NCBI GenBank assembly: GCA_016235265.1
Contig: JACRLI010000015.1
Span: forward strand, 133,335 to 197,334
DNA: 64,000 nucleotides
Reading direction: 5' to 3'
From: Candidatus Eiseniibacteriota bacterium
GTDB taxonomy: Bacteria; Eisenbacteria; RBG-16-71-46; JACRLI01
Both the position numbers and the translations under genes were made by a program. Below, piece after piece: positions 14,820 through 23,580 of the stretch. Each line of letters starts with the position of its first letter. Within the stretch, counting starts at the first letter, position 1. The notes under the pieces were generated by a model, which did not search any database, was not told the origin of the DNA, and was given only the letters and a program-made list of their open reading frames with translations.

Positions 14820-16235
14820 TTACGCGGCGACCCTCAAGGCAGGTTGGGCGGCCGGACGGGCCCGGTGGGCAATTTCTGCCGCCCCGGGCGGCAAGTTTTG
14901 CGCCCCGGCCTCCTCGCGGTACTGGCGGAGCTTGTTGCGCAGGGTGCGCACGCTGATGCCGAGCGTCTCCGCCGCGCGCATCCGGTTGCCGCCGCAGGCC
15001 TGCAGCGCGTCGCGGATGGCGGAGCGTTCCAGCTCGTCCAGGTTCAGTGTGCCGTGCGGGGCGGGCAGGGGCTCGTCCAGGCGGAAGTCGGCCGGCTGCA
15101 GCACCTCGCTGCGGGCGAACACCACGGCCCGCTCCACGGCGTTCCGCAGCTCGCGGATATTGCCCGGCCACGCATGTCGCTGCAGCCCCTCGAGGGCCTC
15201 GGGACTCACGGCACGCACGTCGCGGCCACTCTCCGCCGCGACACGCGCCACGAAGTGCGACGCCAGCAGCGGGATGTCGCCGGCGCGCTGGCGCAGCGGC
15301 GGCAGCGTCACGGTGACCACGTTGAGGCGGTAGAAGAGGTCCGCGCGGAATGCGCCGCGGGCGATCATGGCGGGCACGTCGCGATTGCTGGTGGCCACCA
15401 CCCGGACGTCCACCCGCACCGGCTCGGCGCCTCCCAGGCGGTAGAACTCGCGCTCCTGCAGCACGCGCAGCAGCTTGGCCTGCAGCGCGGGGCTGATCTC
15501 GGAGATTTCGTCCAGCAGCAGCGTGCCCCCGTGGGCCTGCTCGAAGCGCCCCGGGTGCCGGCCGCCGGCACCGGTGAAGGCGCCCTTCTCGTATCCGAAC
15601 AGCTCGCTCTCCAGCAGTCCCTCCGGCACGGCGGCGCAGTTCACGCTGACCCACGGGCCCTCGGCCCGCGGACCCAGGTCGTGCAGCGCCCGCGCCACCA
15701 GTTCCTTGCCGGTCCCGCTCTCCCCCAGCACCAGCGCGGTGGCCCGGCTGCGGGCCAGCGCGGGAAGCTGCTCCAGCACGGCTCGAAGCGCCGGGTCGTT
15801 GCCCACGATGCCGGAGTGGGCCCGGCTCTCGCGCACCAGCTCCTTGAGGCGGCGGTTCTCGCCGCGAAGCCGGGACACGCGCAGCGCCTGCGCCGCGGCG
15901 CGCTCGATGAGGTCGGCCGAGCACGGCTTGAGCAGGTAGTCCTCCGCGCCCTCCTTGAGCGCGGCCACCGCCGATTCCACCGTGCCGTAGGCGGTCAGGA
16001 AGACGCACGCCCCGCTGCCGCCACGCGAGCGGGCCTCGCGCAGCACATCCACACCGGTGGTCCCGGGCAGGCGCAGGTCCAGGAACACCACGTCGGGCGC
16101 GAAGGCGGGCCAGGCGTCGAGCGCCTCCGCCGGCTCTCCCGTGGCCACCACCTCGTAGCCCGCGCCGCGCAGCGTCTCGCCCAGGAAGTCCCGCATCAGG
16201 GGCTCGTCGTCCAGCACCAGCGCGCGCGGCTTCAT
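14820..16235 (-). CDS. Sigma54-dependent two-component response regulator (receiver-AAA+-Fis HTH; FleR/FlrC/FlgR-like)
   Basis: 471 aa from ATG at 16235 (ATGA overlap with kinase stop). Receiver (LVLDDEP...D), sigma54-interaction domain (GESGTGKE Walker A, GAFTGA loop, ESELFGYEKGAFTGA), C-terminal Fis-type HTH. Confidence 0.9.
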   Translation of the reverse strand: MKPRALVLDDEPLMRDFLGETLRGAGYEVVATGEPAEALDAWPAFAPDVVFLDLRLPGTTGVDVLREARSRGGSGACVFLTAYGTVESAVAALKEGAEDYLLKPCSADLIERAAAQALRVSRLRGENRRLKELVRESRAHSGIVGNDPALRAVLEQLPALARSRATALVLGESGTGKELVARALHDLGPRAEGPWVSVNCAAVPEGLLESELFGYEKGAFTGAGGRHPGRFEQAHGGTLLLDEISEISPALQAKLLRVLQEREFYRLGGAEPVRVDVRVVATSNRDVPAMIARGAFRADLFYRLNVVTVTLPPLRQRAGDIPLLASHFVARVAAESGRDVRAVSPEALEGLQRHAWPGNIRELRNAVERAVVFARSEVLQPADFRLDEPLPAPHGTLNLDELERSAIRDALQACGGNRMRAAETLGISVRTLRNKLRQYREEAGAQNLPPGAAEIAHRARPAAQPALRVAA

Positions 16236-17380
16236 GCGTCCTCCGGAGGCAGGGACGGCAGGGTCAGGGTGAAGCAGGCCCCGTGCGGCTTCCGGTCCCG
16301 GTACGCGAGGGCGCCGCCGTGCGACTGCGCGGCCTTGGCGGCCAGCGCCAGGCCCAACCCGGTGCCGCGCGCCTTGCCGGTGATGAACGGTTCGAACATC
16401 CGGTCGCGCACGGCGGGATCCACGCCGGGGCCGGAGTCGGAAATCGTGAGCCGGTGCGCCTCGCCCGGGATCAGGGCCACCCGCACCCGGCCGCCCCGGG
16501 GCGAGGCTTCCACCGCGTTGCGAGCCACGTTGACCACGGCCGCCTGCAGGCGCGTCGCGTCCCCGCGGGTGAATGCGGCCCCCGGTCGCTTCCACACCAG
16601 GGCCACGCCGCGCTCGCGCGCCAGCGAACCGGTCTGCACCAGCGCGGATTCCACCACCGCGCGCAGGTCCACGGGGTCCTTGCGCGGCTCGAAGGGCCGC
16701 GTGAATTCCAGGAATTCGGAGACCAGGTCCTCCAGGGCGTGGATGCCGCAGCGGATCTTCTCCGCGTAGGCCCGGCGGGGGTCGGCCGGTTCCAGCCCGC
16801 GCTCCAGCAGGTCCAGGAAGCCGGACATGCCGCCCAGGGGGTTGCGAATCTCGTGTGCCGCCACCGCGGCCACCCGTCCCAGCGCCGCCAGCGAGCGGGC
16901 GCCCTCCAGCTCCTTGCGCAGCCGCACGTCCTCGGTGCGGTCGGTCAGGATCTCGACGGCCCCCAGCGGCTCGCCGCGCACGCCGCGCACCCAGGACACC
17001 TCGGAGTCGAGGTGACCGGAATCCGGTCCCAGGTCCAGCGCCTCGCTTCGGGGTCCGCCGGCGCGCAGGCGGTCCGCGGGCGAGGGGTGGCCGGGCCACA
17101 ACTCGGCGTACGCGTGCCCCCGCGCGGCCTCGCGGCCCACACCCAGCATGCGCTCCGCGGCGTGGTTCATGCTGCGCACGCGCCCGGAGGAGTCGCTCCA
17201 CACCAGGCCCAGCGGCAGGGACTCCATCACCCGGCCGACCCACAGGTGGAAGCCCTCGGACTCCTCGCGCACGCGACGCAACCGGTCGCGCAGCACGTAC
17301 AGTTCGGCCTCGTCCTGGGCAAGGCGCAGTTCCAGCTCCGCCTGCCCGGTCCAGTCGGTCCCCGGGTGCAGCACGGTCAT
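16232..17380 (-). CDS. PAS-domain sensor histidine kinase (HisKA plus HATPase_c)
   Basis: 382 aa from ATG at 17380 (ATGA overlap with upstream gene). H-box AAVAAHEIRNPLGGMSGFLDLL; G1/G2 boxes DSGPGVDPAVRDRMFEPFITGKARGTGLGLALA; cytoplasmic, no TM. Confidence 0.88.
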   Translation of the reverse strand: MTVLHPGTDWTGQAELELRLAQDEAELYVLRDRLRRVREESEGFHLWVGRVMESLPLGLVWSDSSGRVRSMNHAAERMLGVGREAARGHAYAELWPGHPSPADRLRAGGPRSEALDLGPDSGHLDSEVSWVRGVRGEPLGAVEILTDRTEDVRLRKELEGARSLAALGRVAAVAAHEIRNPLGGMSGFLDLLERGLEPADPRRAYAEKIRCGIHALEDLVSEFLEFTRPFEPRKDPVDLRAVVESALVQTGSLARERGVALVWKRPGAAFTRGDATRLQAAVVNVARNAVEASPRGGRVRVALIPGEAHRLTISDSGPGVDPAVRDRMFEPFITGKARGTGLGLALAAKAAQSHGGALAYRDRKPHGACFTLTLPSLPPEDA

Positions 17381-22079: not shown

Positions 22080-23580
22080 GGCGCTTCTCCAGGGGCAGCT
22101 CGAGGGTGATGGTGGTGCCCCGGCCGGGGGTGCTCTCGGCGGAGATGCTGCCGCCGTGCTCGTGAATGATGGACTGGCAGATCGCGAGGCCCAGCCCGGT
22201 CCCCGTGGCGCGGGTGGTGAAGAACGGGTCGAACAGGCGCGGCAGGTGCTCGGCCAGGATCCCCTCGCCGGTGTCCGACACCCGCAGGCGCACCACCGGG
22301 CGCGCCGCCGCCGGCGGACCCTGCGGCAGCAGGCTGTCCTCGGCGCGCCGCCCGCCGGTGCGGCGGATGAACGGCGGGCTCTCCGCGAGGCGCGCATCCA
22401 GCGTGAGCTTGCCGCCGCGGGGCATGGCCTCGAGGGCGTTGCGGAACACGTTGAGCAACACCTGGATGAGCTGGTCGCCGTCGGCGAACACCTCGGGCAG
22501 CGGATCCTGTTCCTGGAACTCGATCACCACGCCCTGCCGGCCGGCGGCGTCGGCCACCAGTGCGAGCGCCTTGCGCGCGCAGTCCGGCAGCGAGACGCGC
22601 CGCAGCGTGAGGGTCCAGGGGCGCGCGTAGTCTAGCAACCCTGAAACGATCCTGTCCAGCCGGTTGACCTCGTCCTGGATCACGTCCAGGAAGCGACGGC
22701 GGTCGTCGCCCTCCTCCAGCCGGTTGCGCAGCACCTGCGCGCTGGTCGCGATGCCCGCGAGGGGATTGCGGATCTCGTGCGCCACGCCCGCGGAGAGCTC
22801 GCCCAGCACCGCCAGGCGGTCGCGCCGGCGCGCCTGTTCCTGCGCGCGGCGCTCCTGGCTGCGGTCGGAGATCACCACCGCGTGGCCCGCACCGCGGCCC
22901 AGCGGAACCGCGCGCAGCACCAGCGCCAGGCTGTGTCCGGTGGGGTGCGGCGCGCGCACCTCGAGGGCCACCCCCGGCGCCAGGGGCCATGGGAACCCGG
23001 CGTCCTGGCCCAGGGCCGCCGCGAGCGGGAGCCCCACGAGGCCGGCCGCCGGCACGCCCAGGATGTGAGCCGCCGAATCGCTGGCCGCGGTGACCGCGCC
23101 GTCGCCGGCCACCGTGAGCAGACCCTCCTCCAGCAGCGCGCCCGCCACGGCCCAGGCGTGCGCGCGCCGCGCGGCGTCCCACGTCTCGAACGCCGACCGC
23201 GCGGCGGACGCGGCCACCCGCCGGAGCGCGGCGCGCCGGCCGGGCGGCAGCGCGGCCCGCACGCGCACCAGCAGCACGCACGCGCGCCACGGGTCCGAGG
23301 GCCGATGCAGTGGGAACGGGGAGCCGGAGCCGGGGACCGTCTCCGCCAGGGCGGCGCGCAGCGCGCGGCGGCCGGCGGCGTCCAGGCGGCGGTGCGCCAG
23401 CGCGGGCGCCAGGCCGGGAAGGCGCCACGCCACGCCGAATGCGGTGACCCCGCGTTCTCGGGCCAGCAGATCCATGACAGGTTCGAAGAGTCGGGCCGGG
23501 GCGGGGACGGGGATCGGGACGGCGCTGCGGGCGCTGCGGGAGGCTCGGGGCTTCGGGACGGACGGACGGCGTTCGGTCAC
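22054..23580 (-). CDS. Sensor histidine kinase (cytoplasmic, N-terminal sensing region plus HisKA/HATPase_c)
   Basis: 508 aa; H-box LSAGVAHEIRNPLAGI; N/G boxes LLNVFRNALEAM...DTGEGI...GTGLGLAI; overlaps the RR start by 26 nt; N-terminal start uncertain. Confidence 0.85.
   Translation of the reverse strand: MTERRPSVPKPRASRSARSAVPIPVPAPARLFEPVMDLLARERGVTAFGVAWRLPGLAPALAHRRLDAAGRRALRAALAETVPGSGSPFPLHRPSDPWRACVLLVRVRAALPPGRRAALRRVAASAARSAFETWDAARRAHAWAVAGALLEEGLLTVAGDGAVTAASDSAAHILGVPAAGLVGLPLAAALGQDAGFPWPLAPGVALEVRAPHPTGHSLALVLRAVPLGRGAGHAVVISDRSQERRAQEQARRRDRLAVLGELSAGVAHEIRNPLAGIATSAQVLRNRLEEGDDRRRFLDVIQDEVNRLDRIVSGLLDYARPWTLTLRRVSLPDCARKALALVADAAGRQGVVIEFQEQDPLPEVFADGDQLIQVLLNVFRNALEAMPRGGKLTLDARLAESPPFIRRTGGRRAEDSLLPQGPPAAARPVVRLRVSDTGEGILAEHLPRLFDPFFTTRATGTGLGLAICQSIIHEHGGSISAESTPGRGTTITLELPLEKRHGQRRKDG

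Follow-up and report, generated by a model that had tools for sequence, protein, structure and literature searches.

Two NtrC-type two-component systems in series in a flagellar gene cluster of Eisenbacteria, and a candidate enhancer that points to autoregulation of the second

In the flagellum-associated two-component systems FlrBC of Vibrio, FleSR of Pseudomonas and FlgSR of Campylobacter and Helicobacter, activation awaits assembly of the MS ring, the rotor and the export parts. The sigma-54 activators FleQ of Pseudomonas and FlrA of Vibrio carry a FleQ-type N-terminal domain and have no kinase, and in Geobacter a phosphorylated response-regulator enhancer-binding protein, FgrM (kinases GHK4 and GHK3), is said to have been described in 2012 by Ueki and colleagues as the flagellar master regulator. 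To our knowledge, what is understood of sigma-54 hierarchies in flagellar synthesis comes almost entirely from Proteobacteria. Flagellar hierarchies with two sigma-54 activators are already known, namely FlrA followed by FlrBC and FleQ followed by FleSR (PMC3930126); flagellum-associated two-component systems are widespread, FlrB and FleS typically being cytoplasmic PAS kinases (PMC7064773). Here we analyze a stretch of 64,000 nucleotides, henceforth the window (contig JACRLI010000015.1 of assembly GCA_016235265.1, positions 133,335 to 197,334), from a soil bacterium of the uncultured phylum Eisenbacteria, in which two kinase/regulator pairs, kinA and regA (pair A) and kinB and regB (pair B), lie within one flagellar gene cluster. 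We propose, with a probability of roughly 0.55, that the pairs are insulated from each other, that regA would act on its own operon as well as on those of flgB and flgF, and that pair B is a candidate upstream input. The proposal is built on gene content, motifs, promoters, palindromes and synteny, from which we infer the binder of the palindromes and the action of regB.

The window has a G+C content of about 72%, almost all of its genes are on the minus strand, and Pfam scans recovered a single large flagellar cluster. In the direction of transcription this begins with flgF-flgG-flgA-flgH-flgI, an SLT-domain gene (47962-48324), flgN-flgK-flgL-fliW-csrA and a glycosyltransferase island, and continues with flagellin, fliS, fliD, flaG, a gene without assigned function and flgM. 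After flgM come genes for HDOD, GAF-PP2C phosphatase, anti-sigma-type kinase, STAS and HEAT proteins, kinB and regB; regB is followed by REC2, CheR, REC1, a protein with sigma region 4 only, a TPR protein, kinA and regA. The cluster ends with flgB-flgC-fliE-fliF-fliG-fliH-fliI-fliJ and, further downstream, flgD-flgE-flbD-motA-motB-fliL-fliM-fliN. Operon spacing is tight, and the genes overlap within each kinase/regulator pair. Here kinB-regB is followed by a sigma-54 promoter, a seven-gene operon ending in kinA-regA, another sigma-54 promoter and flgB, in agreement with an earlier note on this DNA (its coordinates, like ours, follow window numbering) that described the two pairs as wired in series on the chromosome. 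Among the comparison loci, which we designate by L-numbers, L167 (GCA_025351485.1), another Eisenbacteria genome, has exactly the gene order of the window from flaG to fliH (10214-29726). L081 has it from regB to flgB, as does a JGI contig with a regA of 78% identity.

Both regA (14820..16235, minus strand, 471 amino acids) and regB (20667..22079, minus strand, 470 amino acids) are NtrC-type sigma-54 enhancer-binding response regulators with the Pfam domains Response_reg, Sigma54_activat, AAA_lid_14 and HTH_8 (E-values for regA and regB, respectively: Response_reg 7e-24 and 8e-25; Sigma54_activat 4e-66 and 3e-63; HTH_8 1e-14 and 2e-15). In a homologue search regA proved 100% identical to a protein of an NCBI Candidatus Eisenbacteria MAG, encoded on a 549 kb contig that regB matches as well. 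The receiver residues are DD 9-10, the phospho-acceptor D53, T81 and K103 in regA, and DD 17-18, the phospho-acceptor D61, T89 and K111 in regB. Their AAA+ domains contain the Walker A, Walker B, GAFTGA, FRxDLxYRL and WPGNxREL motifs along with the arginine fingers and sensor II of the NtrC family, and the helix-turn-helix (HTH) is present in each, with the recognition helix ISVRTLRNK in regA and ISRQTLRTK in regB. The kinase kinA (16232..17380, minus strand, 382 amino acids), whose stop is overlapped over 4 nucleotides by the regA start, is a cytoplasmic PAS-HisKA-HATPase protein of FlrB/FleS-like architecture, as seen from Pfam and motifs. Its counterpart kinB (22054..23580, minus strand, 508 amino acids) is likewise a cytoplasmic histidine kinase, consisting of an N-terminal region without a Pfam domain, a degenerate PAS domain (a faint PAS_4 match at residues 152-193), HisKA and HATPase_c with an ATP-lid insertion. 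In both kinases the H, N, G1, F and G2 boxes are intact, and HisKA and HATPase_c score above the Pfam cutoffs. A stretch of kinB at residues 173-191 (hydropathy 1.9) was considered as a membrane segment and rejected, as it aligns with the PAS domain of kinA.

These results uphold the description in the earlier note of two receiver-AAA+(GAFTGA)-Fis regulators, by Pfam and motif check, and of two cytoplasmic kinases, hydropathy revealing no convincing membrane segment in kinA or kinB. Degeneration of one pair, which the note had named as grounds for abandoning its reading, was not encountered, every catalytic motif being intact in both. The term "paralogous" which it applied to the pairs holds at the level of the family and fails for recent duplicates: regA and regB are 42% and kinA and kinB 30% identical, and by sequence comparison the pairs come from different orthogroups, although NCBIfam models do not separate regA from regB. 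The residues of the phosphotransfer helix after the phosphorylated histidine of the kinases, and those of receiver helix 1 after the DD pair, differ between types A and B and are constant within each type across genomes; the residues of the kinA dimerization/histidine-phosphotransfer helix also recur in the kinases that accompany regA-type regulators of other phyla. Co-variation of interface residues is the established logic of kinase/regulator specificity, and by this logic the type-specific residues suggest that the two pairs are probably insulated pathways.

The exact sigma-54 consensus TGGCAC-N5-TTGC occurs four times in the window, always on the minus (coding) strand, against a shuffled expectation of 0.13, and none of 100 shuffles reaches four. 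All four sites are intergenic and lie 30-70 nucleotides 5' of the start codons of flgB, REC2, the first glycosyltransferase gene and flgF, so that the four promoters reported earlier for flgB, flgF, the regulatory operon and the glycosylation island stand. The promoter of the flgB operon, which extends from flgB to at least fliN, is TGGCACGTGGATTGC (14757..14771, minus strand) and has an exact counterpart in L081; the flgB start is most likely the GTG at 14726, behind a GGAGG ribosome-binding site. That of the seven-gene regulatory operon is TGGCACAGGCATTGC (20506..20520, minus strand), with the equivalent site TGGCATAGCCGTTGC in L081. The remaining two, also exact matches on the minus strand, serve the glycosyltransferase island (44162..44176) and the flgF-flgG-flgA-flgH-flgI operon (53311..53325).

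Pair A resembles FlrBC, FleSR and FlgSR in joining a cytoplasmic PAS kinase to an NtrC-type sigma-54 activator among flagellar genes, and the locus resembles theirs in having sigma-54 promoters before the rod, ring and hook operons. By these features we regard pair A as the phylum's counterpart of these systems. Against the curated NCBIfam models its regulator obtains 276 bits with FlgR and 373 bits with FlbD, both with a cutoff of 750, and it scores best with the generic AtoC and NtrC models. Unlike in the described systems, the flgB promoter here also heads the genes for the MS ring, the rotor and the export ATPase, and pair A's own operon has a sigma-54 promoter with the same enhancer candidate (see below). 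Since fliF, fliG and fliI sit behind the same sigma-54 promoter as flgB, the pair A activator cannot simply wait for the assembly of those parts, and the promoter layout argues against kinA activity depending strictly on whether export apparatus, MS ring and rotor have been assembled.

A palindrome of the form GGCGGCA-N5-TGCCGCC is found 74-173 base pairs (bp) 5' of three of the four sigma-54 promoters, those of flgB, flgF and the pair A operon. A search for enhancers upstream of all four, as the earlier note had advised, therefore yields a common element at three of them and none of this type at the glycosylation promoter. The palindrome of flgF, GGCGGCAAATTCTGCCGCC (53480..53498, no strand assigned to this or the other palindromes), is perfect, lies 155-173 bp 5' of its promoter and has the top position weight matrix (PWM) score of the window, 26.5. 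The regulatory operon has GGCGGCAAAACCGGCCGCC in the reading of the minus (coding) strand (20594..20612, one mismatch, PWM score 19.5), 74-92 bp 5' of the promoter, and L081 has a perfect palindrome at the same place. Two palindromes 22 bp apart (14865-14883 and 14887-14905, PWM scores 20.5 and 23.2) lie in the last codons of regA, 94-134 bp 5' of the flgB promoter, and both are kept in L081. The four palindromes score 19.5-26.5 and the next best site of the window 13.2, a separation tempered by the fact that the PWM was built from the same palindromes it ranks. Because the window-wide count of palindromes with at most two mismatches is not above chance (5 found, 3.6 expected), what gives the element weight is where it lies, how far the PWM sets it apart and how well it is conserved. 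In L081 the palindromes, at the same places, are the best-conserved blocks of otherwise diverged spacers, and the regA tail (14820-14910, protein motif AQNLPP.AA) is conserved between genomes only where the palindromes lie. The DNA element thus appears to constrain the tail of the regA protein.

The distribution of regA-type genes in other phyla bears on which regulator binds this element. Each of the top 120 regA homologues matches regA with a higher score than regB (mean 439 versus 335 bits), and 77 of the 120 have the ISVRTLRNK recognition helix. The regA-type gene adjoins flgB in the majority of the loci examined. In several lineages, namely Hydrogenedentes (L082/L083), Latescibacteria (L165) and L169, it directly precedes flgB-flgC-fliE-fliF and itself follows the gene of a PAS kinase, upstream of which a TPR gene and a small gene are often found. 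On the short metagenome contigs L104, L106, L119 and L138 the regulator gene also directly precedes flgB. In L164, L166 and L168 the regA-type module is apart from flagellar genes; a TPR gene is found 5' of the kinase gene in L082, L164, L166, L168 and L169. A metagenome scan with regA returned generic NtrC relatives only, at no more than 47% identity, with few loci in which the regulator adjoins flgB.

Related sites with the core GG[C/A]A-W5-T[G/T]CC occur at similar distances beside several of these regA-type genes. In L164 such a site lies 109 bp before the -24 element of a TPR-kinase-regulator operon and is the top match of the 17 kb locus; in L106 the top two matches lie 117 and 83 bp before the flgB promoter; in L082 there is a site 113 bp before the flgB promoter, and in L165 there are sites at 109 and 122 bp that precede both the regulatory-operon promoter and the flgB promoter. 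The loci L001-L003, obtained by a genome scan with regB, contain regB orthologues whose recognition helix is identical to that of regB. Yet no comparable site was found in these regB-only loci, including at the sigma-54 promoter just after regB of L003. Because related sites adjoin regA-type genes elsewhere and are absent from the regB-only loci, we assign the palindrome to regA, which on this comparative evidence is its likely binder. We also considered that regB could be the master activator, binding the palindrome at all three promoters and leaving regA to serve others (the glycosylation island or genes beyond the window). This would account for a single enhancer type at three promoters, for a glycosylation promoter that lacks the palindrome and needs something else, and for the position of regB 5' of everything else. 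We nevertheless judge it very unlikely, given the regB-only loci without the palindrome, the related sites beside regA-type genes with no regB-type gene nearby (L082, L106 and L164) and the place that regA-type genes keep beside flgB across phyla.

The presence of the same palindrome at the regulatory operon, flgB and flgF points to autoregulation by pair A, not to a plain relay. We propose that phosphorylated regA most likely binds GGCGGCA-N5-TGCCGCC and would then activate the sigma-54 promoters of the flgB operon, of the flgF operon and of its own seven-gene operon (REC2, CheR, REC1, the sigma-region-4 protein, TPR, kinA and regA), the last of these forming a positive feedback loop. Pair B, encoded by the last two genes of the HDOD/PP2C/anti-sigma kinase/STAS/HEAT operon, is a candidate for the input that would first fire the pair A operon, either through regB at its promoter or through transcriptional read-through; the flagellin and flgN operons would then use sigma-28-type promoters. 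That regB acts on the pair A operon at all we put forward tentatively, at somewhat less than an even chance. There are precedents for such wiring: NtrC of the NtrB/NtrC system drives the sigma-54 promoter of its own operon at glnAp2 from palindromic sites about 100 bp upstream, and in Myxococcus development two-component enhancer-binding proteins activate one another's genes. Those systems, however, govern different regulons, and the wiring in Eisenbacteria is predicted here from sequence.

The earlier note had seen in this locus a two-tier sigma-54 hierarchy, of which two intact systems in series with a conserved order remain, and the simple relay finds no support in the form proposed. In such a relay phosphorylated regB would activate the regulatory operon only and regA would then activate flgB, flgF and perhaps the glycosylation island, resembling FleQ-FleSR or FlrA-FlrBC with a phosphorylatable top tier. 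It draws on the position of regB immediately 5' of the regulatory-operon promoter, on the same adjacency of regulator and promoter in L003, L169 and L165, and on the AAA+ domain scores, in which regB does better with FleQ and FlrA (238-251 bits) than with FlrC (207 bits) and regA better with FlrC (249 bits) than with FleQ and FlrA (230-241 bits). In Vibrio, moreover, FlrA drives flrBC (reviewed in PMC3930126). A plain relay predicts different enhancers at the targets of the first and second tiers; although regB adjoins the pair A operon promoter, the only conserved enhancer there is of the type accompanying regA, the same palindrome as at flgB and flgF, and comparison with L081 and a search for inverted repeats gave no second, regB-specific site conserved in the regulatory-operon spacer. 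Furthermore, the sigma-54 promoter by the regB orthologue of L003 lacks the palindrome despite the identical recognition helix; the best inverted repeat of the L003 spacer was tried as a regB site and rejected, having no counterpart in the window. On balance we consider the plain relay unlikely.

Several observations weigh against autoregulation by regA as the core of the wiring. In the window, L081/L167, L169 and L165 alike, the regulatory-operon sigma-54 promoter adjoins an upstream gene for an enhancer-binding protein, and behind the regB orthologue of L003 come a sigma-54 promoter and a REC2-like gene; this arrangement fits action of regB at the regulatory-operon promoter. As regA and regB share most HTH residues, their DNA specificities may possibly overlap. 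The cross-phylum sites are weaker, with PWM scores of 8-13, and no related site was found 5' of the -24 element beside the regA-type genes of L104 and L138 or before flgB in L169. Lastly, sigma-54, sigma-28 and promoter/terminator scans recognized no promoter for the HDOD-to-regB operon; the promoter/terminator scan gave nothing useful on the minus strand of the window.

A sigma-54 promoter that serves a regA-type operon and adjoins a second enhancer-binding-protein gene is also seen in two further lineages. L169 has, in order, a regulator gene, a sigma-54 promoter, a gene for a 147-amino-acid protein, a REC/anti-sigma kinase gene, STAS, a gene for a 490-amino-acid protein, TPR, an FlgN-like gene, the kinase, the regulator, a sigma-54 promoter and flgB, and in L165 the second regulator stands beside the sigma-54 promoter of the operon in divergent orientation. 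The spacer before the TPR gene of L169 (4230-4330) contains a run of N flanked by GGGCGGCGAAGGGCCGCT repeats, an assembly gap inside a tandem repeat.

The closest relatives of pair B are from Eisenbacteria. Orthologues of regB are 77-84% identical in the same arrangement and 49-54% identical in L001-L003, and its ISRQTLRTK helix is common to the orthologues in L081/L167, L001-L003 and L011; orthologues of kinB are present in L001-L003, where the catalytic half is about 52-54% identical, and in L167 (505 amino acids). Pair B is preceded, all on the minus strand and by Pfam, by genes for HDOD (27749-28612), GAF-PP2C phosphatase (26440-27726), anti-sigma-type kinase (25976-26443), STAS (25624-26040) and a 672-amino-acid HEAT-repeat protein (23603-25621). 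From HDOD to regB the gaps or overlaps are at most 22 nucleotides, with the same order in L167, and HEAT-kinB-regB is also found in L001. The partner-switching module of PP2C, anti-sigma kinase and STAS stands beside the anti-sigma-28 gene flgM, and a REC/anti-sigma kinase and STAS occupy the equivalent place in L169. Just past the regB stop there is a GC-rich hairpin, an inverted repeat followed about 12 nucleotides on by ATTTTCC (20631..20655, minus strand), which is a weak terminator candidate: its fold is not significantly more stable than those of shuffles (z = -0.96) and the terminator scan did not call it. With so weak a hairpin, read-through into the pair A operon is possible.

Points in favour of a flagellar role of pair B are its fixed place between flgM and the pair A operon, the sigma-54 promoter directly 3', the arrangement in L003 and the AAA+ scores; points against one are the failure to find a conserved site specific to regB and the setting of the pair in L001. 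It could alternatively belong to an older HEAT-kinB-regB-CheR neighbourhood serving other sigma-54 genes, its place in the cluster reflecting gain or loss of flagellar genes. In L001 the order is Arf-like GTPase, TPR, TrpA, CsrA, HEAT, kinB, regB and CheR (L001 2774-12597), followed by tgt, def and rsmB; the HEAT-kinB-regB-CheR genes are set among housekeeping genes with no flagellar genes within 10 kb, though these may lie elsewhere in that genome. TrpA and the Arf-like GTPase are present in the window as well, where they border the flagellar cluster at its far end (57713-60955, minus strand). Against this, the order FlgM-regB-REC2-regA-flgB is strictly conserved in the flagellated lineages, and the regB orthologue of L003 is followed by the sigma-54 promoter, the REC2-like gene, an FlhG-like ATPase and a FliA-like sigma factor. 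A non-flagellar pair B therefore seems quite unlikely. Comparison of the window with L001 makes it look as though the flagellar cluster had been inserted as one block into an otherwise conserved neighbourhood, or removed from it.

Like FleQ and FlrA, regB is a second sigma-54 activator; it is encoded 5' of the flagellar two-component system, at the place where one would look for a master regulator, and its AAA+ domain is somewhat closer to theirs than to that of FlrC. Unlike them, it has a canonical receiver (Response_reg) with its phospho-acceptor D61 and an overlapping gene for a cognate kinase, and no FleQ-domain match was obtained with Pfam. Geobacter FgrM offers a precedent for a two-component top tier, but through a hybrid-kinase relay, whereas two separate kinase/regulator pairs are present here. 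What distinguishes this locus is an upstream regulator with a receiver and kinase, a shared enhancer implying feedback on the lower pair, and the link of the upper pair to a partner-switching/HEAT module. For an uncultured phylum it supplies a layout consisting of an enhancer motif, three promoters with it, an apparently self-activating regulator operon and a partner-switching-linked second system. Should regB start the cascade, then an ordinary response regulator under phosphorylation control can take the master tier in place of a FleQ-type protein. The wider generalization, that Eisenbacteria and perhaps the lineages of L165 and L169 run flagellar synthesis with two full NtrC-type systems in series, a top pair co-transcribed with the partner-switching module, HDOD and HEAT genes triggering a self-amplifying second pair that drives the basal-body operons, is doubtful; if true, FleQ/FlrA would here be replaced as master regulator by a system gated through phosphorylation and coupled to a serine-phosphorylation switch. 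The ISVRTLRNK helix, the upstream TPR and PAS kinase genes and the frequent adjacency to flgB should also aid annotation of flagellar activators labelled "AtoC/NtrC family".

The other genes of the pair A operon, all on the minus strand, include two stand-alone receivers. REC2 (20072..20437, by Pfam), the first gene, is 49% identical to the gene that follows regB in L003. Between the upstream stop and the first beta strand (window 20425-20503) it has no ATG, GTG or TTG, and the sole candidate start is the CTG at 20437 behind a G-rich stretch; the L003 and L081 orthologues start with ATG. REC1 (18826..19221, by Pfam) is CheY-like, with CheY as its best NCBIfam match, below the cutoff. Between them lies the CheR-type methyltransferase gene (19238..20071; PF01739, E = 6e-41), conserved in L081, L167 and the JGI contig. 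A protein of 104 amino acids (18501..18815) consists of a FliA-like sigma-70 region 4 only (Pfam Sigma70_r4 and r4_2). It is 45% identical to region 4 of the full-length FliA-like sigma factor in L003, and its length stays at 104-106 amino acids in each of the three related contigs; a function as decoy, for either FlgM or a promoter element, is conceivable. The TPR protein (17377..18504; Pfam TPR, hydropathy) has an N-terminal hydrophobic signal-like segment.

Sigma-28-type promoters precede flagellin (TAAAGTT-N12-GCCGAAA, 32786-32811, minus strand) and the flgN operon (TCAAGTT-N12-GCCGATA, 47875-47900, minus strand), and a scan of the window for this type found no sites other than those at 32811 and 47900. 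This places the late genes on sigma-28 and the rod, ring and basal-body genes on sigma-54. Downstream of csrA a strong hairpin followed by TTTTCC (44225-44313, minus strand, z = -2.6) looks like an intrinsic terminator that sets off the flgN-to-csrA operon from the glycosyltransferase island and its sigma-54 promoter. The direct repeats GCCCGGTGGC 5' of that promoter were considered as a second enhancer and rejected, since they make up the arms of the csrA terminator hairpin and the sequence around it. The island itself (32938-44103, minus strand) encodes three very large multi-domain glycosyltransferase/TPR proteins (866-963 amino acids), a DegT-type aminotransferase and an epimerase.

Among minor features of the window, a 745-amino-acid PP2C (SpoIIE-domain) phosphatase gene (53604-55841, plus strand) is divergent from flgF, and a similar 764-amino-acid phosphatase is encoded divergently from kinB in L003. 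A sigma-54-like site with one mismatch, TGGCACGAATGGTGC (61080-61094, minus strand), lies about 125 bp 5' of the Arf-like GTPase gene. The fliW-csrA pair (44314-45056, minus strand) is located 5' of the glycosylation island and the flagellin leader has GGA motifs near the ribosome-binding site; these may constitute a FliW-CsrA-flagellin circuit. Between flagellin and fliS there are 4.7 copies of a 14-nucleotide tandem repeat, ATCCCGGGTCTCCC (31631-31696).

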